A stretch of DNA of 64,000 nt, taken from an uncultured Chloroflexia bacterium. GTDB lineage: Bacteria > Chloroflexota > Limnocylindria > Limnocylindrales > CSP1-4. The stretch spans positions 392,245 to 456,244 of the forward strand of contig CAVZTK010000021.1 of the NCBI GenBank assembly GCA_963778155.1. Reading direction: 5' to 3'. The translations under genes were made by a program, and so were the position numbers. Shown here in pieces: positions 6,128 to 41,784 of this stretch; positions within the stretch are counted from its first letter, which is position 1; each line of letters opens with the position of its first letter. The notes below the pieces were generated by a model. It was not told the origin of the DNA and searched no databases. It worked only from the letters and a program-made list of their open reading frames with translations.

Positions 6128-6987
6128 CCGGGGACGCGGTCCCGCCCGTCCGGCACGTCACGAGCCGGCGGATCGTGGCCGTCCGCGGAGAGTCGCTCGA
6201 GGTCCGCGACGACCGCGTCGTCGGTGAGGCACCGCTCGAGATCCGGGCGGCCGGTCCTCGGCAGGACCCGGTCGCGGTCGCGGTCACGATGCGGACGCCC
6301 GGCAACGAGGCGGAGCTGGCCGTCGGGTTCCTGTGGACCGAGGGGCTGCTCGAAGGCCAGGAGGTCGTCGGCACGGCCGGCGGCGACCCGCGCTCGCTCA
6401 GCCAGCCCGACGACACGATCGTGGTCCGCCTGTCACGGCCGTTCGACGACACCAAGGTCGCCGAGCGCCATTTCGTGGCGACCGCCTCGTGCGGCATCTG
6501 CGGCAGGGCCTCGATCGACGAGGTCGCGCTCCGCGTGGCGCCACTGCCCGCCGGCCCGACCGTCGCCCGGTCGGTGATCCTCGCCCTGCCGAACCTGCTC
6601 CGTGCAGCGCAGCGTGCGTTCGACGAGACGGGCGGTCTCCACGCGGCAGGCCTGTTCAGCCCGAAGGGCGAGCTCCTTGCCCTTCGCGAGGACGTCGGCC
6701 GCCATAACGCCCTCGACAAGGTGGTCGGTTCGCAGGTGGTCGCGGGCGCCATGCCGCTCCACGAGCGGATCCTGATGGTCTCGGGACGCGTGAGCTTCGA
6801 GATCGTCCAGAAGGCGGCGGCCGCGGGGATCCCCATCGTCTGCGCCGTGTCGGCCCCGTCCGACCTGGCCATCGAGACCGCCGAGCGGCTCGGCGTCACG
6901 CTGGTCGGATTCCTGCGCGGTGACGGGTTCAACGTCTATGCGCACGATGCGAGGGTGGACCTGCGCGACCTGAGCGGACTTGGCTGA
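6115..6987 (+). CDS. fdhD: formate dehydrogenase accessory sulfurtransferase FdhD
   Basis: 290-aa ORF with the conserved FdhD core (..ATASCGICGRASIDE.., ..DVGRHNALDKVVG..). Confidence 0.9.
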   Translation: MSGLTGDAVPPVRHVTSRRIVAVRGESLEVRDDRVVGEAPLEIRAAGPRQDPVAVAVTMRTPGNEAELAVGFLWTEGLLEGQEVVGTAGGDPRSLSQPDDTIVVRLSRPFDDTKVAERHFVATASCGICGRASIDEVALRVAPLPAGPTVARSVILALPNLLRAAQRAFDETGGLHAAGLFSPKGELLALREDVGRHNALDKVVGSQVVAGAMPLHERILMVSGRVSFEIVQKAAAAGIPIVCAVSAPSDLAIETAERLGVTLVGFLRGDGFNVYAHDARVDLRDLSGLG

Positions 6988-6992
6988 CCGTG

Positions 6993-7030
6993 TGGGCTGA
7001 CTGTGTTGGCTGAAGACCGGGGGTAGAGTT
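6993..7030 (+). promoter_or_regulatory. three direct repeats TGG(G)CTGA spaced about 5-6 nt apart, upstream of the FIST-cyclase operon (possible regulator binding site)
   Basis: tggctgaccgtgtgggctgactgtgttggctgaag lies between the fdhD stop (6987) and the FIST start (7046). Confidence 0.2.
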
Positions 7031-7045
7031 CGCGCCGGAGGTCCC

Positions 7046-8206
7046 ATGTTCCGGATGGCGGTCGGACAGAGCGACGAGGTCGAGCCGGCGGACGCGATCG
7101 CGGCCGCCATCGAGGCTTGCCGCGCGGCGCTGGGCGATCTCCGACCGCAGGCCGGGATCCTGTTCTCGGCGTTCGACAGCTTCGATCCCTCGGTTGCTAC
7201 GGCCCTCCGCGACGCATTCCCGGATGCGACCGTGATGGGGTCGACCTCGGCCGCGGAGATCTCGTCGGTCAGCGGCTACCAGGAGGACTCGCTCACCCTC
7301 GCCATGTTCGCGTCGGATGTCGTCGACGTGACCGCCGGCATCGGCGCGGGCCTCAGCCTGGACCCCGAGGCGGCGTGCCGGGCCGCGGTCGCGCAGGCGC
7401 TTGGCGCGACCTCGAAGGAACCGAAGGTCTGCGTCGTCCTGGCCGAGGGGTTCGGGGTCGACCCGCAGCAGACGCTCGCAACGGTCGCGCGCGCGCTGCC
7501 CGACGGTGTCCTGATCGTCGGCGGCACGTCGGCCGGCCGCGATTTCGGGGCGCCACAGCCGTCGTACCAGTTCTCCGGCGATGTCGTGGTCGACGATGGC
7601 GTCGCGATCCTGCTGTTCTCGGGTCCGGTCCTCGCCTCGGCCGCCGTCGGGACCGGCTGGCGGACGCTCGGTGCCACCGGGATCGTGACGAGCTCGGGCT
7701 CAGGCGTGGTCAACGCGATCGACGGGCGTCCGGCGATCGAGTTCCTGGCGCGCTATCTGGACGCGACCGGTCCGGCGTCGTTCGGGAACCCGCTGTCCGT
7801 GATCGAGGTCGGCGGTGACGAGCCCTACTACCGCGCGATCACGGGGACCGATCCCGCGTCCGGCTCGATCTGGGTCGCCGGCGAGGTCCCGGTCGGAGCG
7901 ACGGTCCAGCTCTCGACCGCGGAGATGGACGACGTCCTCGCCGGCACGCGCGGGGCGCTCGAGCGGGCAACGGCAGCGTTCCCCGCGGGCGCGGAACCCG
8001 AGGCGGCGCTCGTCTTCTCGTGCGCTGTGCGTCGCTTCCTGCTCGGCTCGCGGACGCGGGTCGAGGCGGAGTTCGCGCGATCGGTGTTCGGTGAGGCGCT
8101 GCCGCTGGCCGGGATGTATTGCTTCGGCGAGATCGGACCCGTCCGTGGCGTCGACACCAGCCGCTACTTCAACGAGACCTTCGTGACGCTGTTGCTTGGC
8201 ACGTGA
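7046..8206 (+). CDS. FIST domain sensory protein (FIST-N + FIST-C)
   Basis: Intact 386-aa ORF with FIST architecture. Its stop TGA (8204-8206) overlaps the GTG start of the downstream cyclase (GTGA). Confidence 0.8.
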   Translation: MFRMAVGQSDEVEPADAIAAAIEACRAALGDLRPQAGILFSAFDSFDPSVATALRDAFPDATVMGSTSAAEISSVSGYQEDSLTLAMFASDVVDVTAGIGAGLSLDPEAACRAAVAQALGATSKEPKVCVVLAEGFGVDPQQTLATVARALPDGVLIVGGTSAGRDFGAPQPSYQFSGDVVVDDGVAILLFSGPVLASAAVGTGWRTLGATGIVTSSGSGVVNAIDGRPAIEFLARYLDATGPASFGNPLSVIEVGGDEPYYRAITGTDPASGSIWVAGEVPVGATVQLSTAEMDDVLAGTRGALERATAAFPAGAEPEAALVFSCAVRRFLLGSRTRVEAEFARSVFGEALPLAGMYCFGEIGPVRGVDTSRYFNETFVTLLLGT

Positions 8207-9032: not shown

Positions 9033-10121
9033 TCAGGCCCGCGGCGGCCGATTGTTGACGAACTCGAAGCCGAAGCGGCCCTTGATGCAGAGATGGCCGT
9101 CGGTCACCGACGAATTGGTCGGCGAGGTGACCTTGACGATCCGGTCGTCCTGTTCGTGGAGCGAGACCGCGCAGCCCACCCCGCAGTACGGGCAGATCGT
9201 GTCGGTCACGGTCTGGGCGGACTCGTCCCAGGTGCCCGCCTCGCGCATGTCGTACTCGGACTTGAACATCAGCGCGCCGGTCGGGCAGACGCCGATGCAG
9301 TTGCCGCAGTAGACGCACGCCGACTCGGGCAGCGGCACGGCCTGCTCGGTCGAGATCCGTGCGTCGAAGCCGCGCCCCGCGACCGCGATGGCAAACGTGT
9401 TCTGCGCTTCCTCGCCGCACGCGTCGACGCACTTGTAGCAGAGGATGCACTTCGAGTAGTCGCGGACGTACAGGTTGTTGTCGACCTTGGTCGGCTGCGC
9501 GACCGTGGCCGCCGCCGCGTCCCCAGCAGGCGCGTGGTGGTGGCCCGCTTCGTGGCCATCGCGCTCCCCGGGCTGGGCGGGTGCCGCCGGAGGCCCGAAG
9601 CGTGCCGGGTCGGCGCCGTACCGCTCGGCATAGCCGGCGATCGAGCCGTCGGGAGCGATCGGGCCCGCCAGCGACAGATCCACCGACGACCCCAGGAATT
9701 CGAGCACCATCCGGCGCGACAGCCGGACTCGGTCGGAGTCGGTCTTGACGTCCATGCCGGCCTCGACCGGTCGCGAGCATGCCGGCACAAGCACGCGCGA
9801 CCCCGTGACCTCGACGACGCACACCCGGCAGACGTTGACCGGCGTCAGGTTCTCGGCGTAGCACAGCGTCGGGGTGTCGATGCCCTGGGCACGGCAGGCG
9901 CCAAGGATCGTCGTCCCGGCCGGGACGGTCACCGCGACCCCGTCGATCGTCAGGGCCACCGGTGGCGGCGCCTCGACCGGTGGCGGCGCGGGCGGCCGCG
10001 ACGCGCGGGCCGGTGGCGTCAGCACGATCTCGGTCAGCGGCTGGGCGGCCGGGTCCTCGCCGAGATGCGGCGCCTGCGGGTCGGGCGCGGGGTCGCGATC
10101 CATGCTCAGGCCGTCGGTCAC
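9033..10121 (-). CDS. NAD-dependent formate dehydrogenase alpha-subunit N-terminal Fe-S module (2Fe-2S + NuoG-type 4Fe-4S + MopB-type Fe4S4 domain), HoxU/HylA/FdsA-N-like; no molybdopterin domain
   Basis: 362-aa ORF: ..[18 protein letters not shown]...CRVCVVEV...[13 protein letters not shown]...[16 protein letters not shown]...[13 protein letters not shown]...[21 protein letters not shown]. It stops directly after the Fe4S4 domain, where fused FdsA proteins continue with ..HRLTKPLIR. Its start overlaps the stop of the nuoF-like gene. Confidence 0.85.
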
Positions 10122-11420
10122 AGGGCCACCATCCCGGGCTGCCGGAACGCCGACTCGATGGCCGACGATGCCGTCTGGCCCAGTCCGCAGATCGACGCGT
10201 CGCGCATGGCCTGGCCGATGTCCCGGAGGAGGACCAGCTCGTCATCGCGCGAGCGGACGTGCGACCCGGCCGCCAGCCGCGCCAGCAGCTCCTCCTGGCG
10301 GGCGCTCCCGACCCGGCACGGGACGCACTGGCCGCACGACTCGTCGCGGAAGAACTGGGCGATCCGACGCAGCGTGTCCACGAGGTCGGCTGTCTCGTCG
10401 AAGACCATGATCACGCCCGAGCCGAGCGTCGCGGCCGCCGCACGCGTCCCTTCGAAGGTCAGCGGCATGTCGAGCGCGTCGGGTCCGACGAACACGCCCG
10501 CCGCGCCGCCGAGCAGGATCGTCCGGATGGACCGGCCGCCGGGCACGCCGCCCGCCAGCTCGATCAGGTCGCGCAGCGTCGCCCCGAACTCGACCTCGTA
10601 GACGCCCGGCCGAGCGACGTGGCCGGACAGGCAGAACAGCTTCGGCCCGGTCGAGCCGTCCGTGCCGATCCGGGCGAACGCCTCGCCGCCACCGAGCACG
10701 ATGGCCGGCACGTTGGCGAGCGTCTCGACGTTGTTGACGACGGTCGGCTTGCCGAACAGCCCGACCTCGACCGGGAACGGTGGCTTGTTGCGCGGCTCGC
10801 CGCGCTTGCCCTCGATCGACTCGAACAGAGCCGTCTCCTCGCCGCAGATGTAGGCGCCCGCGCCGCGCCGGAGCTCGATGTCGAAGGCGAAGCCCGAGCC
10901 GAGGATGTCGGCGCCGAGCAGGCCCGCCTCACGGGCCCGGGCGATCGCGCCCGCGACGCGCGACTCCGCTTCCGGGTACTCGCCGCGGATGTACAGGTAG
11001 CCCTTGCCCGCGCCGGTCGCGAAGGCCGCGATGGTCATCGCCTCGACCGTGGCGAACGGATCGCCCTCGAGCAGGACGCGGTCCTTGAACGTGCCCGGCT
11101 CCGACTCGTCGGCGTTGCACACGAGGTAGTGCGGCTGCGCCGGGCTGGGTCGCGACCGCCGCCCACTTGCGGCCGGTCGGGAAGGCGGCCCCGCCGCGAC
11201 CCATCAGCTTGGACGCCGTGACCTCGGCGATGACCGCGTCGGCCCCGATCGCGAACGCCCGCTCGAGCGCCTGGTACCCGCCGTGTGCCCGGTAGTCGTC
11301 GAGCGAGGTCGGGTCGACGACGCCGATCCGACCGAGCAGATGTCGACGATCGGCGGCCGGCTGCGGGAGATCGAGTACGGCCGCCGGCCCGTTCCTGGAC
11401 GTGCCCCGACCCGGTCGCGG
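10118..11420 (-). CDS. NuoF/FdsB/HoxF-like NAD(H)-binding FMN Fe-S subunit (51-kDa type), with at least one frameshift near 11140
   Basis: The 10118..11122 frame gives ..[33 protein letters not shown].. The N-terminal ..[50 protein letters not shown] lies in the 10929..11597 frame. The junction is in a cccggc run. Confidence 0.8.
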
Positions 11421-12006
11421 CAGTCGTGGCGGTCGCCGATTCGAGCGCGGCAGTGACCCCGGCCGCATCGACCGGCGCGGCCGTCCAGGTCGTCGCCGTC
11501 TCGCCGGCGGCGGTGAACATGGCGGCCGGCGCCCGGTCGCACAGCCCGAGGCACGGACTGCGCAGCCACGTCGCGCGGCCGTCCCGGATCGGCTCACCGG
11601 CCGCCCCGACGGCCCGTGTCAGGTCAGCGCAGATCGCCTCCGCGCCGGCCAGCCGGCAGGCGATGTCGTCGCAGACATGGGCGACGACCGGTGGTCGGGG
11701 CGTCGTCGCGAAGAGGGCGTAGAACGTCGCGACGCCGTAGGCCTCGGCGGGAGCGACCGCGAGCCTCTTGCAGACGTAGTTGAGCGCGGGCGTGCTGATC
11801 CAGCCGATCCGCGACTGGATCGCGTGGAGGGCCGGGATCAGCTCCGCCCTGCGGGCGCGGATGGCATGGCCGCCGCGGGCCGCGTGGCCGTCGTTCCGCG
11901 CGTCGCGCGCCCCGCCGAACCAGCCCGAATCGGGCGGCCCGAGCACCGCGTCCACGGCGGCCCGTTCGGCCGGTGACGCGAGGGGGCCGATGACGTGGAG
12001 ATCCAT
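11420..12006 (-). CDS. NuoE/FdsG/HoxE-like 2Fe-2S thioredoxin-like subunit (24-kDa type); 3' end unresolved (possible fusion or frameshift with the nuoF-like gene)
   Basis: ATG at 12006: MDLHVIGP...ALHAIQSRIGWISTPALNYVCKRLAVAPAEAYGVATFYALF...VCDDIACRLAGAEAIC...CLGLCDRAPAAMF.. There is no in-frame stop before the nuoF-like domain begins. Confidence 0.7.
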
Positions 12007-13100
12007 CGCAGCCGAGTGTAGCGCCGGGTGTCAGGGCAGGGAGGGCGACCTCGGCCGGCCCCGAACGTCGGCCCTGACCCACCCGCGGCGCGGACCTTCG
12101 GCGGCGAGCCTAGCCCCGGAGGTCCTCGGCGACGTCCGTCGAGCGCCCCGGCCGCACCGATCTCCTCCATCCCCTGGCCCGCCTCGGCGAACCCGGCGGC
12201 CCCGATGTCCACGGCCGTCCGGCGGACGGATTCACCGACCACCATCTCCTCGGCGCCCTGGTAGCTGAGCGCCGCGCCCGATTCGGCCAGCTCGTCGCTC
12301 CGTTCGGCCAGGCCCTCGGCGACGACGAGCCGGGCGACACCTTCGGCCGCCTCCGTCTCGCCCAGGAACTCGACCCGCTCGCCGGTCTCGGCCAGCGCCC
12401 GTGCGATCGCACGCGTGCCGCCGGCGCGCACGATGGCGTCGACCGACACGCCGAGCAGCTCGTCGCCGCGGTCGGCCAGGAAGGTCGCGAGGACCGGCAT
12501 CCCGATCCGGCGGACGACGATGGCGACCGCCCCGAGCTCGCCGCTGACGCGCGCGATCTGAAGGCCGCGTTCGAGGTCGTCCTCGCTGATCGCCCCGACG
12601 ACCGCGCCGAGGAGCGAGATGTCCTCGGAGGTCGCGAGCAGCTGGGCACCCTGCTCGACGTCGTTGATCCCTGCCGCCGCGACCACGTCTCCGAGGGCCG
12701 ATACCCGGCCGGCGACGATCAGCTCGTCGGTCCCACGGGTGAAGTCGCTGGCACCCTCGACGACCGCGGCGCGTCCCGCCGCAGCGGCATCGGCCGCAGC
12801 GGCCACGACGTCGAGCCCGGCCTCGACACGGGCGGCCCCGTCGACCCTCTCGGCCTTGGCAGCGCGCGAGGCCAGGGCAGCCGTTTCCTTCGCGGCGCTT
12901 CGTGAGGCCGCCTTCGATGACGTCTTGCCCGATGTCCTGGTCGACGTCTTCGCCGAGCTCCGCGCCGTGGGCTTGGTCGCCGCCTTGGCCGCGGCCGCCC
13001 GGGTCGTGGTCTTGTCGGTCGCCGCTGCCGTGGTCTTGGCCGGCGTCTTCGCCGCGGGCTTGGCCGGACGCTTGCCGTTGCCCCCCGTCTTCGGTGGCAT
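12007..13100 (-). CDS. histone-like Lys/Ala-rich protein with a C-terminal Ala/Glu-rich repeat domain (hypothetical); 3' end unresolved
   Basis: MPPKTGGNGKRPAKPAAKTPAKTTAAATDKTTTRAAAAKAATKPTARSSAKTSTR.. is a basic AKP-repeat tail like the HU/H1-like C-termini of actinobacteria, followed by a repetitive acidic domain. The ORF (11838..13160) has no stop before the nuoE-like start at 12006, so a late frameshift is likely. Confidence 0.45.
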
Positions 13101-15012: not shown

Positions 15013-16438
15013 CCGATGCCCTGCGGCCCGTCACCGACGCGCCGCAACGCGCCGGCGCGGCAGGCTCGGGCTCATGCGCCGCCTCTGACGAGGCCGTCGG
15101 GCTGGCGTCCGGCGAAGGATCGGCCGGACCCGGTCGCCCTCCTCGAGGAGCAGGCGGCGACCCGGATCCCGGAGCTCATGCCCGTCCGATACGGCCGGAT
15201 GATGGCATCGCCGTTCGCGTTCTACCGTGGCGCGGCGCTGCTGATGGCGGCCGACCTGACGACGCTCCCGGTCAGCGGGATCCAGTCGCAGCTGTCGCGG
15301 GGACGCGCATCTCAGCAACTTCGGGATGTTCGCGTCGCCGGAGCGAGACCTCGTCTTCGACATCACCGACTTCGACGAGACGCTGGTCGGTCCGTGGGAA
15401 TGGGACCTGCTCCGATTGGCGGCCAGCCTGGTCGTCGCCGCGCGTGGGCGCGGCTTCGATGCCCACATCGCGCGTCACGCCGTGCATGAGGCGGTCCGCT
15501 CGTATGCGACACGCATGACCGAGTACGCCGCGATGCCGGCGATCGACGTCTACTACTCCAAGGTCGATGCGCATGCCATCCTCGGGTTCACCGACGTCCG
15601 GGCACGCACCTATCTGCAGGACACGATCAAGGCGGCGGCGCACCACGACGCTCTCCACGAGCTTCCGAAGATCACCGAGCTGACCGGCGGGAGGCGCCGG
15701 ATCGTCGACCACCCGCCGGTGATCACCCATCCGGCGGAGTTCACGACGCCGCTTGCCGAGACGGCTCTGCAGGGCTATCGCGAGAGCCTCCAGGAGGACC
15801 GACGCGTCCTGCTCGACCGCTACCATCTGGTGGACTGGGCCATGAAGGTGGTCGGGATCGGGAGCGTCGGACTGGGCGCGTTCGTCGCCCTGTTGCTCGG
15901 GACCGGCGACGGCGATCCGCTGTTCCTCCAGGCCAAGGAGGCAGAGGCATCGATCCTCGAGCGGTTCCTGAAGCCGAGCCCCTACCCGTCGCACGGCGAG
16001 CGGATCGTGACCGGGCAACGACGGCTCCAGGCGACCAGCGACATCCTGCTCGGCTGGACGATCGGGGAGCGCGGCCGCCACGTCTACGTCCGCCAGCTCC
16101 AGGACCAGAAGGGTGCCGCCGTCGTCGAAGCGATGACCGCCGACGACCTCGAGGAGTGGGGCGAGCTGTGTGCCTGGGCCCTCGCTCGCGGCCACGCCCG
16201 GTCCGGCGACCCGGCGGTGATCGCGGGTTATCTGGGCGACGGCGTGGCATTCGGCCACGCGGCCGGCGACTTCGCGACCGCCTACGCCGACCAGACCGAG
16301 CGGGATCTCGACCACGTTCAAGGCCGCCATCAAGGCGGGCCGGATCAAGGCCGAGCAGGGGGTCTGACCACGGGCCGCCGACCGGCGGTCCGCCGGACTG
16401 GGGCCGCTGTTAGGCTTGGGCCCGCACGGGTCGCCTGA
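15009..16438 (+). CDS. DUF2252 domain protein, with frameshifts near 15035 and near 15300
   Basis: ..RPDPVALLEEQAATRIPELMPVRYGRMMASPFAFYRGAALLMAADL..(shift)..GDAHLSNFGMFASPERDLVFDITDFDETL.. are hallmark DUF2252 motifs. The junction (ctgtcgcgggga) carries one extra C. Confidence 0.8.
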
Positions 16439-18091: not shown

Positions 18092-19261
18092 ATGATCAGA
18101 ACCCGGTGGCGCATCGCAGCCGCAGGCGCCTCGTTGTTCATGCTCGGTCAGCTCGTCCTTGCCGCCCCGGTCGGGGCGACGACTGGTCAGGCGACGGTGA
18201 CCGCCGACATGCCATCTGCCGTGCCGGCTGGCCGGCTCTGGAGCTTCAACGATTTCTTCCCGCGGACAGTCACGGTGAAGACCGGATCCGACCTCCAGTT
18301 CACGAACGAGGGGTTCCATACGTTCACGGTCCTCCCGGCCGGCGACACGGCGAAGCAGGACTGGCAGACGAACGGCGCCGCCATCGACGATACCGACGAC
18401 ACCGCGCTCAACCCCAATGGCACGACCCACGCGGCATTCAATATCCCGGCGCTGCTGCCGACCTGCGGGCCGGCGCCGCTACCGTCGTGCACGTTCGACG
18501 GGAGTTCGACCATCAACATCAGCCCACTAGGCCCTCCCGGTCCGGTCGACGTCCACGTCTCTGCCGATCCCGGGACGTATGTCTTCATCTGCCGGATCCA
18601 TCCGGGCATGAGCGGCACGCTCAAGGTCGTCGCGGCCAACGCGAAGGTCCCGAGCCAGACGCAGGTCGATCAGCAGGTCAGCAAGCAGGTCGACAAGGAC
18701 CTGAAGGGCGCGTGGCAGGCCGACAAGAAGGCCAACCACGACGCGATCACTCAGAACAAGGATGGGTCGCGGACGCTGCACGTGACAGCAGGCACGTCGA
18801 GCAAGGACGGCAAGGTGGCGCTGCTCGAATTCTTCCCCCGCAACCTTGATGCCAAGCCCGGTGACAAGGTCGTCTTCACGCCGCGCTCGCCGAACGAACC
18901 CCACACCGTGACCTTCCCGATGGACTTCGGGACCGACATGATCAACCTCTGCGAGGACGGATCGTCGGATACGCCGTTCGGGCCTCCCGATTTCTCGTGT
19001 CCCGACCACCCAGGTCAAGGGCCCGACGAGGTCGAATTCGATGGCGGCAACGGCGTCTCGCATGTGACCCAACCGGGTCTCGACGGCACCGTCTCCGATT
19101 CGGGCACGATCGGGTCGCCGAAGGTCGCCAAGGGCTTCGGCATCCGCCAGAGTGACGTCCTGGGTTCGTGGACGATCTCGCTGAGTGGCGCGGCGCCGGG
19201 TACCTACACGTACGTCTGCCAGATCCACGACGGGATGGAGGCGACCATCACCGTCCACTGA
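18092..19261 (+). CDS. secreted two-domain cupredoxin (blue type-1 copper protein)
   Basis: Signal peptide MIRTRWRIAAAGASLFMLGQLVLAAPVGA, then two cupredoxin folds with C-terminal copper-ligand motifs (..YVFICRIHPGMSGTLKV.. and ..YTYVCQIHDGMEATITVH*). The ORF track starts it at 18002. Confidence 0.8.
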   Translation: MIRTRWRIAAAGASLFMLGQLVLAAPVGATTGQATVTADMPSAVPAGRLWSFNDFFPRTVTVKTGSDLQFTNEGFHTFTVLPAGDTAKQDWQTNGAAIDDTDDTALNPNGTTHAAFNIPALLPTCGPAPLPSCTFDGSSTINISPLGPPGPVDVHVSADPGTYVFICRIHPGMSGTLKVVAANAKVPSQTQVDQQVSKQVDKDLKGAWQADKKANHDAITQNKDGSRTLHVTAGTSSKDGKVALLEFFPRNLDAKPGDKVVFTPRSPNEPHTVTFPMDFGTDMINLCEDGSSDTPFGPPDFSCPDHPGQGPDEVEFDGGNGVSHVTQPGLDGTVSDSGTIGSPKVAKGFGIRQSDVLGSWTISLSGAAPGTYTYVCQIHDGMEATITVH

Positions 19262-19325: not shown

Positions 19326-21249
19326 TCAGACCGTCGCCGGCTCCGCCAGCTTCTCGATGCGGATGGCCGTCGCCTTGAACTCGGCCGTGCCCGACTTCGG
19401 GTCCGTCGCGTCGATCGTCAGGAGGTTGACCGCGACCTCGTCCTGGAAGTGCAGCGTCATGAACGTCAGGCCCGGCCGCAGCGACGGGTCGATCCGGATC
19501 GGGACCTCGACCTGGCCGCGGCGCGAGACGACCCGGACCCGCTCGCCTTCCGCCAGCCCGTAGGTCAGGCGTCCTCGGGGCTGATGTCGAGGCTCTCGCC
19601 GCGGCGCAGCGGCGAGGTGTAGCCGCCGGTCTGGACGCCGGTGTTGTACGAGTCGAGGCGGCGGCCGGTCGTCAGCCGGATCGGGAAGTCGTCGTCGAGC
19701 CGGTCGACCGGCGGGTCGTGGTCGACCGGCACGAACGGCACGCGATTGCCGGGGACCGGGTCCTCCCACAGCCGGGAGTGGAGGAACAGCTCGCCCGGAT
19801 GCGTCTCGTCGTAGCACGGCCACTGGATCCCGCCGAGCTCCTCGAGCCGCGTGTAGCTCATCCCGGCATGGACCGGCGACAGGCGTCGGACCTCGTCCCA
19901 GACGGCTTCGGCGTCGGCCTCGCCCCAGTCGTGCGCCCATCCGGTCGCGCGAGCTCGAAGATGATCGCCAGGTCGTCGCGCGCCTCGCCGGGCGGCTCGA
20001 GCGCCTTGCGGACGCGCTGGACGCGCCGCTCGGAGTTGGTGACCGTCCCCTCGGATCTCGGCCCAGGCGGCGGCGGCCGGCAGGACGACGTCGGCGAGCT
20101 CGGCGGTCTTGGTCAGGAACATGTCCTGGACGACGAGGAAGTCGAGGCCCGACAGGAGCTGCGATCGTCCGCTGCTGGTCGGCCTCGGACTGGACCGGGT
20201 TCTCGCCGATGACGTAGACCGCGGTCAGGTCGCCGCGCTCCATGGCGTCGAACATGCCCGACAGGTGCCAGCCCCGCTTGCGGGGGCACGGGGACGCCCC
20301 AGTCGGCATCGAACTTGCGCGCGCAGCGCGTCGTTCTCGACGTGCTGGAAGCCCGGCAGCCGGTCGGGCAGGGCGCCCATGTCGCCGCCGCCCTGGACGT
20401 TGTTCTGGCCGCGCAGCGGGTTGACGCCGCTGCCGTACCTGCCCGACGTGACCGGTCAGCAGCGACCAGCGAGATCAGCGCCAGCACGTTGTCGACCGCG
20501 TTGTGGTGCTCGGTGATGCCGAGCGTCCAGCAGATCATCGCGCGCGGTCGCGGTCGCGTAGGCGTGCGCCAGCTCGCGGATGGCCTCGGCCGGGACGCCC
20601 GTCTCGCGCTCGGCGTACTCGAGCGTGTACGGCTCGACCTTGGCCTTGTAGGCCTCGAAGCCGCTCGTCGCGCGGTCGATGAACTCGCGGTTCTCGAGCC
20701 CGGCGGCGATGATCTCGCGCGCCGACGGCGTTGGCCAGCGCGATGTCGCTGCCGACGTCGAGGCCGAGCCAGACGTCGGCCCACTCGGCGCGAGCTCGTC
20801 CGGCGCGGGTCGACCGCGTACAGCCGCGCGCCGCGGTGGACGCCCTTGCAGCAGGTGGTGGAAGAAGATCGGATGCGTCTCGCGGGCGTTGCTGCCCCAC
20901 AGGACGATCAGGTCCGTGTCTTCGACCTCGCGATATGAGCTTGTGCCGCCCCCGGCACCGAACACGGTCGCCAGACCGGCGACGCTAGGGGCGTGTCAGG
21001 TCCGGTTGCAGCTGTCGATGTTGTTGCTGCCCAGGACCGCCCGGCTGAACTTCTGGGCCGCGAAGTTGACCTCGTTGGTCGCCTTCGAGCAGCTGAAGAT
21101 GCCGAATGTCGTCGGGCCGTGGGCCGCCTTCGCGGCCACGAACCCGGCGACGGTCCGGCGAGCGCCTCGTCCCAGGTCGCCGGTCGGAGCTCGCCGCCCT
21201 TCGTGTCGCGGACGAGGGGCTGGGTCAGTCTCAGGTAGGGCTTCGCCAC
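19326..21249 (-). CDS. selenocysteine-containing molybdopterin formate dehydrogenase catalytic subunit (FdhF/FdsA C-terminal part; Sec codon TGA at 20996-20998), heavily frameshifted (at least 10 frame changes)
   Basis: GTG at 21249 preceded by AGGAGG: [30 protein letters not shown].. Then ..[48 protein letters not shown]-[TGA][49 protein letters not shown].. Later conserved blocks in shifting frames (..[24 protein letters not shown].., ..[16 protein letters not shown].., ..[84 protein letters not shown].., ..[30 protein letters not shown].., ..[29 protein letters not shown].., ..[70 protein letters not shown]) all align to FdhF. Confidence 0.8.
20967..20983 (-). promoter_or_regulatory. bacterial SECIS hairpin (fdhF type) 12 nt downstream of the Sec UGA
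   Basis: mRNA: UGA CACGCCCCUAGC GUCGCC-GGUCU-GGCGAC. This is a perfect 6-bp stem with a GGUCU apical loop, as in E. coli fdhF (..GCAGGUCUGC..), at the canonical distance from the UGA. Confidence 0.6.
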
Positions 21250-21365: not shown

Positions 21366-21881
21366 GTGATCCTCCCCAAGGTCCGGGATCCGCGGTTCAT
21401 CACGGTGCGTCGCGGTGGCAGCCTCGCGGACGACGATCATCGGTTGCTCGCGGTATGGGCGGCCGACTGCGCGGCGCACGTGCTGCACCTTTTCGAGGCG
21501 GTCCGGCCCGGCGATGACCGACCGCGCCGGGCGATCGACCTCGGCCGTGCCTGGGCGCGGGGCGACATCACATGGGCAGAGGCCCGCACAGCGGCGGGCC
21601 ACGCCAACGCCGCGGCCAGGGACCTGAGGGGCGCTGCGCGGCATGCCGCGTATGCCGCCGGACAGGCCGCCGCGGTGGGCCATGTCGCGGCCCACGAGCT
21701 CGGCGCCGCGGCCTACGCCATCAAGGCGGCGCGTGCTGCCGCGACCGACGATGAAAGCGAGGCGGCCCGCCATCTCGAGTGCCAGTGGCAGCGTGCCCAG
21801 CTCCCCGAGGAGATCCGCGAGCTGGTGCTCGACGACGAGCGGCTGCGCAACGAGCTGTGCTGGTTCGTGTTCGACCCCTGA
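21366..21881 (+). CDS. conserved hypothetical protein (171 aa)
   Basis: Intact ORF divergent from the FDH catalytic gene (MILPKVRDPRFITVRRGGSLADDDHRLLAVWAADCAAHVLHLFE...). It resembles a small family often mis-annotated as SbcC or immunity-like proteins; the assignment is uncertain. Confidence 0.5.
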   Translation: MILPKVRDPRFITVRRGGSLADDDHRLLAVWAADCAAHVLHLFEAVRPGDDRPRRAIDLGRAWARGDITWAEARTAAGHANAAARDLRGAARHAAYAAGQAAAVGHVAAHELGAAAYAIKAARAAATDDESEAARHLECQWQRAQLPEEIRELVLDDERLRNELCWFVFDP

Positions 21882-24193: not shown

Positions 24194-25259
24194 TCAGACG
24201 AGGCTGACCCCGGGCTCCCCGGCGGCCACGCTCCCGATCCACCAGCGCTCGACACCTGCGGCGTCGAATGCCGCCTCCAGCGCATCGACGCTGTCGGGCG
24301 CGACCGCCGCGAGGAGACCGCCCGACGTCTGCGGATCGTGGGCCAGCGTGACGAGGTCGGCCGGCACATCGGCGCCGACCGCGAGGGAGCCCGCGACGAA
24401 GCGGCGGTTGTGGGCCGCACCGCCGGTCTCGACGCCGGCCGCCGCGAGGTCGCGCGCGCCGGCGAGGGCGGGCAGGGCCGCTGCCTCGAACAGGAACCGG
24501 GTCCCCGACGCACGCGCCATCTCGAGGCCGTGGCCGAGCAGGCCGAAGCCGGTGACGTCGGTCGCCGCGGAGATGCCGGCCGCGACGAGCACCTCGGACG
24601 CCGTCCGGTTGAGGCGGCGCATCCCGGCGATCGCGGCGGCCAGGTCAGCCGCGCTGGTCCTGCCCTGGCGCGAGCCCGACACGAGGACGCCGGTGCCGAG
24701 CGGCTTCGTCAGCACGAGCCTGATCGCCCGGCCGGGCGCCGCCCTTGCGCAGCAGCCTGTCGGGGTGTGCCGCACCGATGACGGCCAGCCCGTACTTGGG
24801 TTCGGGGTCGCGGATCGTGTGGCCGCCCGCCAGCGTGCCACCCGCCTCGCGGACCGTGGCCGACGCACCCGCGAAGATCTCGGTCATGATCTCGCGCGGC
24901 AGCTCCTCGGGGAATGCCGCGATCGACAGCGCGAACAGGACCCGGCCGCCCATCGCGAACACGTCCGACAGGGCATTCGCCGCGGCGATCTCACCGAACG
25001 TCCTCGGGTCGTCAACGAGCGGCGGGAAGAAGTCGAGCGTTCCGATGATGGCGAGGTCGTCACCCACCCGGTAGACGGCGGCGTCGTCGGGCGGATCGAG
25101 GCCGGCGATCAGCGAAGCGTCCGGATCGGCGGCGGCCTCCGCTCCGAGCCCGGCCAGCGCCTCGGCCAGCAGGTCCGCCCCGAGCTTCGCGGCGCAGCCG
25201 CCGCAATCGGTCAGGTCGGTGAGGCGGATGGGGTCGGTCTCGATGGCGGTCATGAGCAC
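24194..25259 (-). CDS. selD: selenide, water dikinase SelD (selenophosphate synthetase), Cys form, with a frameshift near 24720
   Basis: MLMTAIETDPIRLTDLTDCGGCAAKLGADLLAE..AVYRVGDDLAIIGTLDFFPPLVDDPRTFGEIAAANALSDVFAMGG.. (24645 frame) continues as ..RLVLTKPLGTGVLVSG...TDVTGFGLLGHGLEMARASG.. (24194 frame). Confidence 0.85.
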
Positions 25260-25280
25260 GATGATAGGGCTACCATCGCG

Positions 25281-25376
25281 CCGGGAGCGGTCGGGTCCCG
25301 GTGGGTCCCCTGGTCTTCAAAACCAGTGGCGCGGCGCTCGGCGCGGCGCGGTGGGTTCGACTCCCACGCGTTCCCG
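25281..25376 (+). tRNA. selC: tRNA-Sec (anticodon UCA), 96 nt plus encoded CCA (to 25379)
   Basis: GGGAGCGGTCGGGTCCCGGTGGGTCCCCTGGTCTTCAAAACCAGTGGCGCGGCGCTCGGCGCGGCGCGGTGGGTTCGACTCCCACGCGTTCCCGCCA: 8-bp acceptor stem, long variable arm, anticodon loop cT-TCA-Aa, T-loop GGTTCGACTCC. It sits between selD and selA. Confidence 0.85.
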
Positions 25377-25393
25377 CCACGGAGGACCTCGAC

Positions 25394-26802
25394 TTGTCCG
25401 AACGCCCACGACCACCGAGCGTCGAGCGACTGCTGACGGTCGTGCGCCCGCGGCTCGGCGCCGACGTCGCACCCGATGCGCTCGCGGCGGTGGCACGCGA
25501 GGTCATCGCCGACGAGCGCGCCCGTCTCGACGACGGGGGAGCCGCCGACGCCGGCCGGCCTTGACGTGTTGGCGGCGACGGTCGTGGCACGACTTGCGGC
25601 CTTCGCCGACCCGGCGGGGAGCGGCCTGACCCCCGTCCTCAACGCGACCGGCGTCGTGCTGCACACGAACCTGGGCCGAGCACCGTGGCCACGGGTCGCG
25701 ATCGAGGCCGCGATGCGGGCGGCGGGTGGCTACTCGCTGCTCGAGTTCGAGCGCGAGGCCGGCCGCCGCGGACCGCGCTTCCGGGTCGCCGAGGAGCACC
25801 TCATCGCGCTGACCGGGGCCGAGGATGCGCTGGTCACGATCAACAACGCGGCGGCGGTCGCGCTGGCGGTCGGGCTGGCCGGGACGCACGGGGTCGCGGT
25901 CTCGCGCGGCGAGCTCGTCGAGATCGGCGGTGGCGTGCGGATCCCCGAGATCGTGCGGCGGACCGGCGCCCGGCTCGTCGAGGTCGGGCACCACCAATCG
26001 GACACGCGCGGGCGACTTCGAGGCGTCGCTGGCCGACGGCCGCGCGACGGTCGTCCTCCGCGTCCATCCATCGAACTTCGCCCAGACCGGCTTCGTCGAG
26101 GCGCCCGACCCGATCGAGCTCGCACGCCTCGCCCACGCGCACGGCGCGATCGTCATCGACGACCTCGGGAGCGGCGCGCTGCTCGAGACGTCCGTGTTCG
26201 GGTTGGCCCACGAGCCGACGCCGCGCGAGCGGCTGGCTGCCGGCGCCGACCTCGTCACGTTCAGTGGCGACAAGCTGGTCGGCGGGCCACAGGCGGGGCT
26301 CATCGTGGGGCGGGCCGACCTCATCGCCCGGATCCGGAAGGACCCGCTCGCCCGCGCGGTCCGGCCGGAGAAGGTGACGCTGGCCGCGCTGGCCGCGACC
26401 CTGGGCCTGTATCGGGCGGGTCGTGCGGTCGCGGACATCCCCGTCTGGCAGATGATCGCGGCCACGCCCGGGACGCTCGGGAGACGCGCCGATGCGCTGC
26501 TCGCCGGGTTGCCGTCCCAGGCCCGGGCACGCGTGTCCGTGACCGAGATGGACTCGGCGGTCGGCGGCGGGTCGCTGCCCGGCGAGACGCTCGAGTCGGT
26601 CGGCCTGGTCGTGACCGGGGGCGGCCCCGACGCGCTCGCGCGCAGGCTTCGGACGGGCGATCCGGCCGTCGTCGCCCGGGTCCAGGACGGCGCGGTGCTG
26701 CTCGACCTGCGGACGATCGATCCGGCCGACGACGCGGCGCTCGGGGCGGCCCTGGCCCGGGCGCTCGCCCCGCGTGATCGTCGCGCCGCCGACCCGGGAT
26801 GA
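25394..26802 (+). CDS. selA: L-seryl-tRNA(Sec) selenium transferase SelA, with frameshifts near 25560 and near 25990
   Basis: TTG at 25394 with GGAGGA 7 nt upstream. Blocks ..[18 protein letters not shown].., ..[14 protein letters not shown].. and ..[40 protein letters not shown]...[18 protein letters not shown].. lie in three frames. The PLP-Lys motif FSGDKL is present. The stop overlaps the selB ATG (ATGA). Confidence 0.85.
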
Positions 26803-28674
26803 CCGTCGTCGTCGGGACCGCGGGGCACATCGACCACGGCAAGACCACGCTCCTGCGGGCGCTGACCGGGATCGACGCCGACCGTCTGCCCGAAGAGCGG
26901 CGGCGGGGGATGACCATCGACGTCGGCTATGCCCACCTGATCCTGTCCAGTGGCGAGGCCATCGATTTCGTCGACGTCCCGGGCCACGACCGGCTGGTCG
27001 GCAACATGCTGGTCGGGGCCGGCGAGATCGACGCCGCACTGCTGGTCGTGGCCGCCGACGACGGCCCGCGCGCCCAGACGGTCGAGCACCTCGCGCTGCT
27101 CGACGCGCTCGGCGATCCGCGACGGCATCGCGGTCGTGACCAAGGCCGACGTCGCCGGCCCGGAGCGGACGGCCGAGGTGGTGGCCGCCGTCGGCCGGCT
27201 GCTCGACGGGACGTCGCTGGCCGGCTCGCCGGTCGTGGCGGTCTCGGCGGTGAGTGGCGAGGGGCTGGGGGCGGTGCGGATCGCGCTCGCGGACCTCAGC
27301 GCGCGGGTCGCCATGCGGGCGGCGGGTTCGGTGCCGGTCACGACGGCCGCCGGTGCGCGCCTCGCCATCGATCGCGTCTTCGCGGTCAAGGGTCGTGGCG
27401 TGGTCGTGACCGGCACGCTGCGCGGCGGATCGATTGCCCGAGGCGCCGTCCTGCGTCTCGTGCCCGGCGACGGGTCCGCCCGCGTCCGCGAGGTCCAGGT
27501 CCACAACGCCCCCGTCGAGGTCGCCGGGCCGGGTCGCACCGCGCTGAACCTCGCCGGAGTCGACGCGGGCGATCTCCATCGCGGCCTGGTCCTGACCGAC
27601 GACCCGTCCGTCCTGGTGAGCGACCGGATCCTCGTCAGGCTCGCCTCGGTCCTGCCCGACCGCGCTCGGGCCCGGGTCCACCTCGGGACAGCAGCCGCAG
27701 ATGCGAGCGTGGGACGGAACGGGCGCGACGCCCTCGAGCTGCCCGACGGGACGAGCGGCGCCATCGTTCGCCTCGCGACGCCCGTCGCGGTCGCGGCGGG
27801 CGACCGCCTGGTGCTGCGCCGAACGTCGGGTGCGGAACGGATCGTCGGGGCGGTCGTGCTCGATTCGGTGCCGGCTCGCGGCATCTCGCGCCGCCGTCAG
27901 ACGCCGGAGCGGGTCACTCGGCTCAGCGCCGCCGTCGAGGCCGGCGACGGTCCGGCGATCGAGGCTGCCAGGCTCGACCTCCACGGGGTGCTCCCGCCGA
28001 TCGGGCCCGGACCGCTCCGGATCGCCGCGGACATCGAGACCGCGGCCGAAGATCACGTGCTGACCGCGGTCGATCCGGAGCTGGACCTGCCCGGGGCTCG
28101 GGTGGTCGCCGCGACGGCACTCCGCCGGCGCGCGACGATCGACCGTTCCGCCGCCGCAACGGCCGGGGCCGCCCTCGTCGACCGGCTCGTCACGGACGGC
28201 CGGCTGGTCCGTGACGGGGCGACGGTCCGCCGGCCGGGGGCCGGTCCGCTCCCGCCGGTCCCGGACCCCACGCTCGCCGCCGCGATGACTCGCCTGGAAA
28301 GCGCTCTCGCGGTCACCGCGCCGCCACCGCTGGCGAACGCCGCGCGAGCAGCCGGCTGCCCGCCCGACGCCGTCCGCGCACTCGAGCGGGCCGGCCGGAT
28401 CGTCGTCCTCGAGCCGGACCTCGCCTACACGACCTCGACCTATCGCGAGATCGCGGCGATCGCCGTCGACGCCGCCCGCCGCGGACCGCTGACCCCGGCG
28501 GCGCTGCGTGATGCCACCGGGTCGAGCCGGAAATACGTGATGGCCATCCTGGCCGACCTCGACCGGCGCGGGATCCTGCGCCGGACCCCGGACGGCCATC
28601 TGCCCGGGCCGAGGGCCAACACGGGCATCGGCGCCGAGGCTGCCGGGAGCGGCACCCTGACCAAAGCCCGATGA
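26799..28674 (+). CDS. selB: selenocysteine-specific translation elongation factor SelB, with a frameshift near 27110
   Basis: [71 protein letters not shown]-(one extra G)[13 protein letters not shown].., EF-Tu-like domains II/III, and C-terminal winged-helix SECIS-binding domains (..[21 protein letters not shown]..). Confidence 0.9.
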
Positions 28675-34268: not shown

Positions 34269-35465
34269 ATGCTCAGGATCATCCACACCGCGGACGTCCA
34301 TCTCGGCGCGCGGCACGACGATCTCGGTGAGCAGGCGGCCGCCCAGCGGGAACGTCAGTTCGCGGCGTTCAAGGCCGCAGTCGACCTGGCGCTGACCGAG
34401 AAGGTCGACCTGTTCCTGATCGCGGGCGACCTGTTCGACTCGAACATGCAGCCGCGCCGCTCGGTCGAGCGGGTCGCGGCCGAGCTCGCCCGCCTGGCCG
34501 AGTCGCGGATCCGGACCGTCATCATCCCGGGCACCCACGACGTCTTCGACCGCGCGTCGATCTATCGAGCGTACGACCTCGCCGCGATGGCCGGTGTCAC
34601 CGCCGCGACGGCCGCCGAGCAGCTGGTCACCGTCCTCGACCCGGATCACCCGTCGGTCCACCTCGTCGCGCTCGAGACCGTCGTCCACGGCCGGGTCTTC
34701 GCCGACCAAGCGTGCGCCGCACAGCCCGCTGCAGGACGTCGCCGCCGACGTGGCCGCCGCGCGCGCCGACGAGAAACCTGTCACGTGGCACGTCGGGATG
34801 GTCCACGGCTCGATCGCCATCCCGGGCAAGACCGACCGCGACGAGGTCGTGATCACGACCGAGGAGATCGCCGCGACGGGGCTCGACTACCTCGCCCTCG
34901 GGTCACTGGCACTCCGCCCAGAGCGGCAAGGCCGGGACCGTCGCGTACGCGTATTCCGGCGCCCCGGAGGCGGTCGCCCTCGACCAGGACCGGGCGGGCA
35001 AGGTCCTGCTGGTCGAGCTCGACGAGAAGGCCGGCAAGCGGACCACGACGATCGAGGAGCGACAGGTCGGACGGACCCGGTTCACCAAGCTCGAGGTCGA
35101 TGCCGCCACGGTCGCCAGCCAGCCGGCCCTGGTCGACCTGCTGTCGGCCCAGACCGATCCGGACCTCGTCCTCGACGTCCGGCTGGTCGGCGTCCGCCGG
35201 GACGAGCTCGACCTCGACCTCGATGAGATCGAAGTGGCCCTGGCGCCCGCCTTCCTCAAGGTCCGCGTCCGCGACGCCTCGGTGCCGGCGCTGACTGAGG
35301 GTGCGCTGCCGTCCCCGGACACGATGGCCGGGCGCGTTCATCCGCGACCTCGAGGCGCGGATCGCCGAGCTCGAGGCCGCCGGCTCCACCGCCGAGGCCG
35401 CCGAGCAGCGCGACGCCCTTCGGCTCGGCCGGCTGCTCCTCGCGGGCCACGAGGTCACGCTGTGA
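34269..35465 (+). CDS. SbcD/Mre11-family nuclease (YhaO-like metallophosphoesterase), with frameshifts near 34700 and near 34900
   Basis: MLRIIHTADVHLGARHDDLG..DLFLIAGDLFDS..VIIPGTHDVFD.. The middle segment (..VTWHVGMVHGSIAIPGKTDRDEVVITTEEIAATGLDYLALG..) and the C-terminus (..LLAGHEVTL*) lie in other frames. The stop overlaps the next gene's GTG (GTGA). Confidence 0.75.
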
Positions 35466-39471: not shown

Positions 39472-39585
39472 GTCGCCGGCGTCGAGCTTGACCCATTTCG
39501 TCCCGGCAGCCGCGGAACGCGTGCCGGCTCGACCATGTTGCCCGATGACGTAGACGACGTCGCCCCCGATGATACGCGCCGGCGG

Positions 39586-40044
39586 TCAGCAGCAGGAAGC
39601 CGACGAACGAGACAGCGCGACCGCGATGGTCCGGTCCGGACCGCCCGCCGATCGCAGCACGAGCGAGACCAGGAGGAGCACGAGGGTCACGACCATCAGC
39701 GTCGCGTGCGTCGTCGCTCGCGTTCGGGCGGTGCCGTCGGTGTCGGTGTAGTCCGCGAAGCCGGCTACGGCCGCACCCAGCATGAACAGGATCGTCGCGA
39801 CGAGCGCGATGTCGCGGCCGCGGCGTTCTGGCCGAGGACGTCGAGGATCACGGTCAACAGCAGCGCGCCGATGGGGAGGTCCGTGACGGCGGCATGGACG
39901 GGGTGGCCCAGCCACGTGCCGTTCAGGAAGTCCTTGACCGGCCGGATCGGGCGGAACAGGGCGTTCAGCCAGCGATGGTTGAAGTCGCCGAACGGTCGCG
40001 CCCAACCATCCTGTGCGGCTATCAGCCGAGCGATCAGGCGACCC
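39586..40044 (-). CDS. DUF2231-like membrane protein, with a frameshift near 39800
   Basis: MGRLIARLIAAQDGWARPFGDFNHRWLNALFRPIRPVKDFLNGTWLGHPVHAAVTDLPIGALLLTVILDVL (39765 frame) continues as ..IALVATILFMLGAAVAGFADYTDTDGTARTRATTHATLMVVTLVLLLVSLVLR.. (39586 frame). Confidence 0.55.
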   Translation of the reverse strand, partial: GSPDRSADSRTGWLGATVRRLQPSLAERPVPPDPAGQGLPERHVAGPPRPCRRHGPPHRRAAVDRDPRRPRPERRGRDIALVATILFMLGAAVAGFADYTDTDGTARTRATTHATLMVVTLVLLLVSLVLRSAGGPDRTIAVALSRSSASCC

Positions 40045-41719: not shown

Positions 41720-41784
41720 CCGACCGGCCCGGTCGGCCCGCGCAGGGCCGTCAGCCGGTCGCCTCCTTCCGGCGGCGCGGCTGG

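Follow-up and report, generated by a model that had tools for sequence, protein, structure and literature searches.

Frame shifts clustered in a selenocysteine formate dehydrogenase gene of an uncultured Limnocylindria bacterium are probably long-read consensus errors

The gene for the catalytic subunit of a formate dehydrogenase (FDH), which appears with 14 frame shifts in the assembled sequence of an uncultured Limnocylindria bacterium, is almost certainly intact. We estimate at around 0.85 the probability that it is whole and, judging from its sequence, functional in the organism, and that all 14 frame shifts are errors in the consensus of a metagenome assembled from long reads, most probably from Nanopore reads alone. 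Such frame shifts belong to a known class of long-read consensus errors, in a form that is not the textbook homopolymer one. We analyzed a window of 64,000 nucleotides, i.e., the whole stretch of DNA presented above. A preliminary description of this window had weighed two readings of the gene. The first, a genuinely decaying selenoprotein gene, is contradicted by the intact copy in an assembly of the same species (assembly C below), by the constraint that the protein has kept, by the unchanged Sec codon and SECIS-like hairpin, and by the indels, which are of the type produced by artefacts. The second, a local assembly problem, is supported by the artefact-type insertions, by the intact sister copy, and by split orthologues that come from Nanopore-only assemblies.

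The formate dehydrogenase gene and its locus

All three minus-strand frames between 19326 and 21249 hold fragments of a molybdopterin formate dehydrogenase, in a window with 65-76% G+C. The gene, its Sec signals, its partner genes, and the neighboring Sec machinery are the following.

19326..21249, minus strand: FDH catalytic (molybdopterin) subunit gene, from three-frame translation and alignment to 66 orthologues and to the intact copy in assembly C
20996..20998, minus strand: in-frame TGA encoding Sec (CNRT-U-HAPSVAG), from orthologue comparison and the sel genes nearby
20967..20983, minus strand: SECIS-like hairpin GUCGCC-GGUCU-GGCGAC, read from the sequence, beginning 13 nt past the UGA codon
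9033..10121, minus strand: Fe-S subunit of 362 aa with Fer2_4, 4Fe-4S, and, at the C-terminus, Molybdop_Fe4S4 domains (Pfam), intact in the window
10118..12007, minus strand: nuoE/nuoF-like fusion gene, frame-broken at around 11140 by a window-private insertion, from the codon-usage frame model
24197..25263, minus strand: selD (AIRS/AIRS_C), frame-broken at 24723, from the frame model, domains, and sister comparison
25283..25379, plus strand: tRNA-Sec with anticodon TCA, from ARAGORN and Rfam (RF01852, 65.5 bits)
25430..28674, plus strand: selA followed by selB, frame-broken at 25545, 25986, and around 27110, from the frame model, Pfam, and sister comparison

The gene model starts with a GTG at 21249 and comprises 84 codons, the TGA, 552 codons, and a stop ending at 19326, i.e., 637 codons including Sec. 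With the stop this amounts to 1914 nt, and 12 insertions and 2 deletions (net +10 nt) bring it to the 1924 nt that are observed. When stitched by hand, the protein has thousands of homologues, the best of which are 86-89% identical across the 542 residues that follow the in-frame TGA. The repaired protein has no stop beyond the Sec UGA and matches in Pfam both PF00384 (Molybdopterin; 236 bits, positions 1-353 of 353) and PF01568 (Molydop_binding; 92.9 bits, positions 2-109 of 110). By its sequence, the gene is an ordinary Sec-containing catalytic subunit of the FdhF/FdsA type, with formate oxidation as its predicted role. It is also the best-conserved part of the locus, with 85-89% nucleotide identity between genera versus 69-81% in the flanks.

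A TGA occupies the Sec position in the five orthologues that were translated and in all 40 of those listed among 52 distinct orthologue sequences. The hairpin, with its perfect 6-bp stem and its GGUCU loop, is identical in the same 40 listed sequences, synonymous positions included. This invariance leaves no covariation, and the z-score of the single-sequence fold (-0.19) is uninformative in such a GC-rich context. No Rfam family matched the hairpin region. The hairpin with its GGUCU loop presumably resembles the SECIS of Escherichia coli fdhF.

The Fe-S subunit corresponds to the N-terminal part of the single-chain FdhF-type enzymes. Its gene lies around 9 kb from the catalytic gene and adjoins the nuoEF-like fusion gene, whose orthologue in assembly C is intact (628 aa, with 2Fe-2S_thioredx and Complex1_51K domains). 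The same split architecture was found in the relatives L001, L084 (assembly A), and L087 (assembly C), and it is common to all the relatives examined; it is unrelated to the frame shifts. The Sec machinery comprises the tRNA-Sec and, in the window and in the relatives, SelA, a SelB-type GTPase with winged-helix domains, and the AIRS protein (selD). An ABC1/UbiB gene of the window is also frame-broken, at 23327.

One-base indels in the gene

Aligned with the 66 orthologues and with the intact copy of assembly C, the FDH gene has 14 one-base indels, 12 insertions and 2 deletions, or around 7 per kb. They were placed by this alignment as follows.

19567, minus strand: deletion in a multi-allelic codon, yielding an in-frame TGA
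around 19932/3 and 19946/7, minus strand: two insertions
20057, minus strand: insertion GA[G][A]TCC, pairing the two third-position alleles of a Glu codon
20162, minus strand: insertion AT[C][G], pairing the two third-position alleles of an Ile codon
around 20278/9 and 20317/8, minus strand: two insertions
20440-20444, minus strand: insertion turning GG into GGG, common to assembly A (L003) and absent from assembly C (L087)
20463, minus strand: insertion
20548..20549, minus strand: insertion
around 20724-8, 20792/3, and 20849, minus strand: three insertions
21155..21156, minus strand: deletion in a codon that is AAG in some lineages and CGG in others

Hence, the frame disruptions that the preliminary description had placed in 19326-21249 are where it put them, and its count of at least 10 was an understatement. 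About nine of its 10 positions match real indels, and those at 20792, 20057, and 19932/19946 had been missed. Thirteen of the 14 indels are private to the window assembly, and both deletions fall on codons that are variable between lineages. Programmed frameshifting or recoding was dropped as an explanation, as the 14 sites have no slippery motifs and the sister genome lacks them. We also dropped synthetic noise, since six proteins of the window stand unaltered in NCBI/ENA records, on a contig of 1,436,730 bp.

Error background in the window and in sister assemblies

Three assemblies of the same species, collinear with the window and with 94-96% nucleotide identity to it, were available for comparison: A (ERZ25039543 contig_38568, with L003, L083, and L084), B (ERZ25039457 contig_75044, with L085), and C (ERZ25039552 contig_74653, with L086 and L087). 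These assemblies, the closest relatives, consist of contigs in the style of Flye that come from the Microflora Danica Nanopore project. When species-representative genomes were scanned, the FDH relatives found were of the Chloroflexota, Limnocylindria type, most of them in MFD MAGs, i.e., from the same long-read project. The Microflora Danica pipeline combines Flye (meta/nano-hq) with one round of Medaka and does not include short-read polishing, and its lower-coverage MAGs show Nanopore-associated problems (PMC12313526). Shallow Illumina data exist for the sites sampled by that project. Given its source, the size of its contig, and its relatives, the window itself is most probably a Nanopore/Flye/Medaka product.

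Over the 33.5 kb for which two or more sister assemblies were available, we assigned private indels to the genome carrying them, and counted those whose length is not a multiple of three.

Window: 50 private indels, 42 insertions and 8 deletions, 1.49 per kb
Assembly A: 31 private indels, 24 insertions and 7 deletions, 1.37 per kb
Assembly B: 23 private indels, 16 insertions and 7 deletions, 1.17 per kb
Assembly C: 19 private indels, 14 insertions and 5 deletions, 0.57 per kb

The usual form is the one-base insertion, and these indels break nearly every gene, at different places in each assembly. No living genome would tolerate such a load in nearly every gene, and the private indels are thus assembly errors. 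Outside the FDH gene, we counted around 33 uncompensated frame-breaking events in around 57.6 kb of the window (0.57 per kb), by sister comparison and a codon-usage frame model, some of the events being polarized by the frame model alone. The background of around 0.5 per kb given in the preliminary description was thus about right.

The errors of the window are clumped. There are no private events between 26 and 34 kb and very few after 46 kb, and a second hot spot of 7 insertions lies in 34.7-37.0 kb, in sbcCD, where about half of them extend runs of G. Assembly B has 8 private events within 0.8 kb of a gene for an MFS permease, which both the window and assembly C carry intact. The indel density of the FDH gene is around 13 times the mean of the window, and this is its densest cluster. 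Under a homogeneous Poisson process, one would expect 1.1 events where 14 are found (P around 1e-11), a null that is wrong for errors so strongly clumped and that overstates the singularity of the gene. The preliminary description had called the excess unlikely under a Poisson mean of about 1; the excess is real, and the null is invalid. In other words, errors are unevenly distributed along the window, and the FDH cluster is the far end of that distribution rather than an isolated oddity.

Apparent pairs of alleles at the insertions

The inserted bases have a recurrent signature. In tests of this signature that were devised after the pattern had been seen by eye, and in which null rates are high and P values modest (around 0.001-0.005), the extra base and its neighbor are two alleles of one site among relatives in 11 of the 12 insertions (null 0.46; P = 0.0015), 9 of the 12 are at third codon positions (null 0.29; P = 0.0014), and 6 of the 12 pass a stricter version (null 0.15; P = 0.005), which requires the two commonest alleles, the rarer being at a frequency of at least 20%. 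Such pairs include CT[G][C] (Leu, CTG/CTC), GA[G][A] (Glu, GAG/GAA), and GC[G][C] (Ala, GCG/GCC). In 9 of the 11 allele pairs, one allele is that of assembly A and the other one is foreign. We looked for a single donor lineage: L060 carries all 9 of the 9 foreign alleles, for a median of 4, which is marginal among 66 candidates, and no donor is claimed. By eye, several private insertions in the FDH copies of other Nanopore MAGs look alike.

The synonymous sites of the gene point in the same direction. At third codon positions, the distance of the FDH gene to outgroup lineages is 0.217 in the window versus 0.257 and 0.248 in the sisters, i.e., the window is 13-16% closer to them. For comparison, in five flanking blocks the window and two sisters are equally distant from the outgroups, and the pull is thus confined to the FDH gene.

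These observations suggest how the errors may have arisen. Given the conservation of the gene, reads or haplotypes of co-occurring strains or relatives would be folded into its consensus. Where the haplotypes differ, mostly at synonymous third positions, the consensus would write both alleles in series, and each doubled allele would add a base and shift the frame. Since the FDH gene is the most conserved stretch and its insertions mostly look like doubled alleles, we infer that the local excess of errors likely stems from a consensus of mixed lineages or strains. However, sbcCD, which holds the second hot spot, is not highly conserved, and mixing driven by conservation cannot therefore explain all of the clumping. 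At least one further cause exists, e.g., dips in coverage.

The FDH cluster could in principle also stem from nothing more than low coverage at this place or from poor polishing, if raw-read errors had survived there without any mixing of haplotypes. This would agree with an error density that varies several-fold along the contig, from the sbcCD hot spot to long clean stretches, with the similar cluster that assembly B has in an unrelated gene, and with the Nanopore-associated problems of lower-coverage MAGs (PMC12313526). We nevertheless find it unlikely: random errors should not favor polymorphic third-codon sites or copy the alleles of other lineages, nor should they draw the synonymous sites of the gene towards the outgroups, and they should have left random substitutions at conserved residues, where none was found. 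The cause likely looks more like a mixed-allele consensus than plain low coverage.

Evidence on gene decay

The frame shifts might instead be real. One could imagine a very recent pseudogenization, in which a burst of one-base indels killed the FDH gene while the sel genes and the partner subunits have not yet decayed. The high density of disruptions in the gene would fit this scenario, as would the insertion common to assembly A, and the same elements can be phrased as a population at the start of losing its Sec FDH by a burst of +1 events, with the shared insertion as the founding lesion. We regard the pseudogenization as very improbable and this variant of it as equally so, for reasons that come from the sister genomes, from the family, and from the sequence of the gene itself.

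Comparing orthologous loci in sister genomes was the check put forward by the preliminary description, and its outcome goes against decay: the FDH gene is intact in assembly C, where it is called, as is usual for selenoproteins, as 84 aa, UGA, and 542 aa, and has one frameshift in assembly A. Besides, the insertion that the window has in common with assembly A conflicts with the grouping of assemblies A and C. For this insertion (20440-20444), an artefact that recurred at one site is a better explanation than inheritance, and a real inherited mutation could also fit. In the alignment of 66 orthologues, one-base frameshifts were found in 10 of the 36 orthologues from Nanopore MAGs and in none of the 30 from other MAGs. 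A tblastn search gave a similar picture, as the gene is frame-split in 9 of 42 loci from Nanopore-only MAGs versus 0 of 118 from other MAGs and metagenome contigs. Frame-split orthologues are thus found solely in Nanopore-only assemblies, which speaks against a pseudogenization. Among short-read metagenome contigs there was no copy of the gene from the same species, the best one having 91% amino-acid identity. The neighbors do not have the status that the decay scenario gives them either. The preliminary description had assumed that the nuoEF-like and sel genes persist, and they turn out to be frame-broken at the background rate (at 11140, 24723, 25545, 25986, and around 27110).

Of the 257 residues that do not vary among the 66 orthologues, the repaired protein retains 256, and the sole exception sits on an indel. 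The protein differs from that of assembly A (L003) by 34 replacements, of which around 14 would be expected on invariant positions if they were neutral. The dN/dS between these two copies is 0.23. The gene has neither a nonsense substitution nor a multi-base deletion. The accumulation of 14 neutral indels would imply many tens of neutral substitutions, along with a few nonsense codons and longer deletions, whereas the substitution density of the gene equals that of its flanks. Bacterial pseudogenes are biased towards deletions. Here, the spectrum is of 12 insertions for 2 deletions, all of 1 nt; it is the one that private errors show in each of the four assemblies, and not the one of pseudogenes.

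One element on the other side is the position of the changes within codons: 27 of the 65 substitutions on the window branch fall on first or second codon positions in the FDH gene, versus around 21% in most flanks, a somewhat raised share that pseudogenization would account for. This excess may be a sign of relaxed constraint, although almost all of the residues produced by these substitutions occur in other members of the family. We also rejected an apparent excess of amino-acid changes on the window branch (21 versus 6, with eight close outgroups), which results from the choice of outgroups and from misalignment beside indels. The seemingly new residues are mostly common in the wider family and the invariant sites are untouched, which identifies this excess as an artefact. 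Substitutions within 4 nt of indels are rare (3 of 65), and the indels are thus not generally messy multi-base scrambles.

A recombination mosaic, in which the FDH gene took up tracts of other Limnocylindria lineages, with the insertions as independent noise that is dense by chance, hardly deserves credit: it would account for clustered window-private substitutions towards the states of other lineages (e.g., a stretch of 10 residues at about 19950-20000) and for the proximity to outgroups at synonymous sites in this gene only, but L003 is nearest in most 120-nt windows and recombination leaves the insertions on two-allele polymorphic sites unexplained. The same sliding nearest-neighbor scan led us to discard a gross chimera; at most, the gene may contain small mosaic tracts.

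Implications

Consensus error in an intact gene has consequences for how such loci are annotated. Taken at face value, the annotation is that of a dead selenoprotein gene beside live Sec machinery, which would create a false story of selenium-trait loss in an abundant uncultured lineage of soil. More generally, frameshift errors in long-read-only MAGs are uneven and can heap up around tenfold in single genes. Pseudogene counts, coding-density checks, and inferences of gene loss from such MAGs need to be confirmed at the level of reads or across assemblies. If the mixing mechanism is true, it would put highly conserved genes at the greatest risk. The value of the case lies in a quality-control warning for gene-loss inference and in a testable idea on where errors concentrate, and its biological interest is low.

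Comparison with known systems

The FDH of the window resembles other FdhF/FdsA-type Sec formate dehydrogenases in having both Mo domains in full, a UGA-encoded Sec in the CNRT-U-HAPS motif, a hairpin downstream of it, and adjacent genes for tRNA-Sec, selA, selB, and selD. It differs from the single-chain FdhF in being split, with the Molybdop_Fe4S4 domain outside the catalytic polypeptide.

The resemblance to bacterial pseudogenes, e.g., those of reductive genomes, lies in the several frame disruptions of a recognizable gene. Unlike them, the FDH gene shows no nonsense substitutions, larger deletions, or loss of conserved residues, its indels are biased towards insertions, and it is whole in another genome of the species.

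The closest parallel is with the indel errors of long-read-only (Nanopore) MAGs. As in these, genes are fragmented by one-base indels of which each assembly has its own set and which cluster in places; the copies of the FDH gene in non-MFD MAGs and metagenome contigs have none. The textbook Nanopore error is a miscall of length in long homopolymers. The FDH gene departs from it in a way that points to a mixture of strains or lineages in the consensus, since most of its insertions look like doubled alleles and lie outside homopolymers, at polymorphic synonymous sites.

Organization and surroundings of the formate dehydrogenase genes

The formate dehydrogenase (FDH) is encoded in two pieces, and the following genes of the window are relevant to its organization and neighbourhood:
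9033-12007 (-), Fe-S part of the FDH with the nuoE/nuoF-like fusion gene
18092-19261 (+), gene of a 389-aa, secreted-looking protein
19326-21249 (-), molybdopterin catalytic gene of the FDH
21366-21881 (+), Imm5-like putative immunity protein gene

In the Fe-S part, the 2Fe-2S, 4Fe-4S and Molybdop_Fe4S4 domains lie together on one 362-aa protein, and the gene of this protein follows the nuoE/nuoF-like fusion gene on its downstream side. The catalytic gene is on the same strand, at a distance of ~9 kb. This split was kept in every relative examined (L001, a locus of a more distant relative, L084, and L087), and the two parts are far nearer each other in L001 than in the window.

Judging from the loci compared, the surroundings of the catalytic gene are variable. 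The Imm5-like gene is directly upstream of it, on the opposite strand, and its place in L001 is taken by a PIN/PhdYeFM toxin-antitoxin pair (6898-7595) that adjoins the FDH gene. The sole match of the 389-aa protein is to a cupredoxin/plastocyanin-type domain at its C-terminus. Only three proteins make up its 90%-identity cluster, and this species is the source of each. At the nucleotide level, its gene aligned with no outgroup locus.

Conservation downstream of the UGA codon

Across genera, and in all FDH loci, synonymous positions are almost all frozen in the ~50 nt 3' of the UGA (window 20935-21000 (-)), while many third codon positions differ between lineages in the rest of the gene. A GUCGCC-GGUCU-GGCGAC hairpin lies inside the frozen stretch. 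On comparative sequence grounds, this stretch reads as a clear sign that the RNA itself is constrained (putative SECIS).

Indels outside the FDH gene and shared insertions

The background, i.e., the frame-breaking events outside the FDH gene, is slightly undercounted because the stop-distance rule took a frameshift junction at 48936 for a gene boundary. The gene concerned encodes a glucose-6-phosphate dehydrogenase (47750-48936 (-)) of 391 aa after a one-base insertion at 48936, and its orthologues have 577 aa. Raw indel counts are, for their part, inflated by dense groups of small indels that separate the window from all sister genomes (12041-12141 and 15016-15079), in stretches that are non-coding according to the codon-usage frame model. 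Such indels probably reflect true differences in the length of intergenic DNA rather than errors. A tight cluster of window-private indels at 39507-39824 (-) includes several that total multiples of three (three +1 events in 35 nt; +1 and +2 in 35 nt), and, instead of being errors, these may mark a part of a Rieske/DUF2231-type protein that has truly diverged with its frame kept.

Two insertions are common to the window and the same-species assembly A. The first is a G in the FDH gene (20440-20444, GTCGGC to GTCGGGC; L003 in A), which is lacking in sister assembly C, though A groups with C elsewhere. The second, in selB (~27110), is absent from assemblies B and C. Both are explained either by consensus errors that recur at particular sites or by variants that the window and A truly share.

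Comparison with other indel clusters

A second hot spot of window-private insertions (34701-37012 (+), 7 events in 2.3 kb) covers sbcD/sbcC-like genes (Metallophos, SMC_N/AAA_23). Around half of these insertions extend short G runs, a difference from those of the FDH gene. In assembly B, an MFS permease gene (L085 ~100-1900, window 40905-41728) carries 8 private one- or two-base indels within 0.8 kb. The window and C both have this gene intact (434 aa). The cluster in B is of the same kind as that of the FDH gene in the window, but affects another gene in another assembly.
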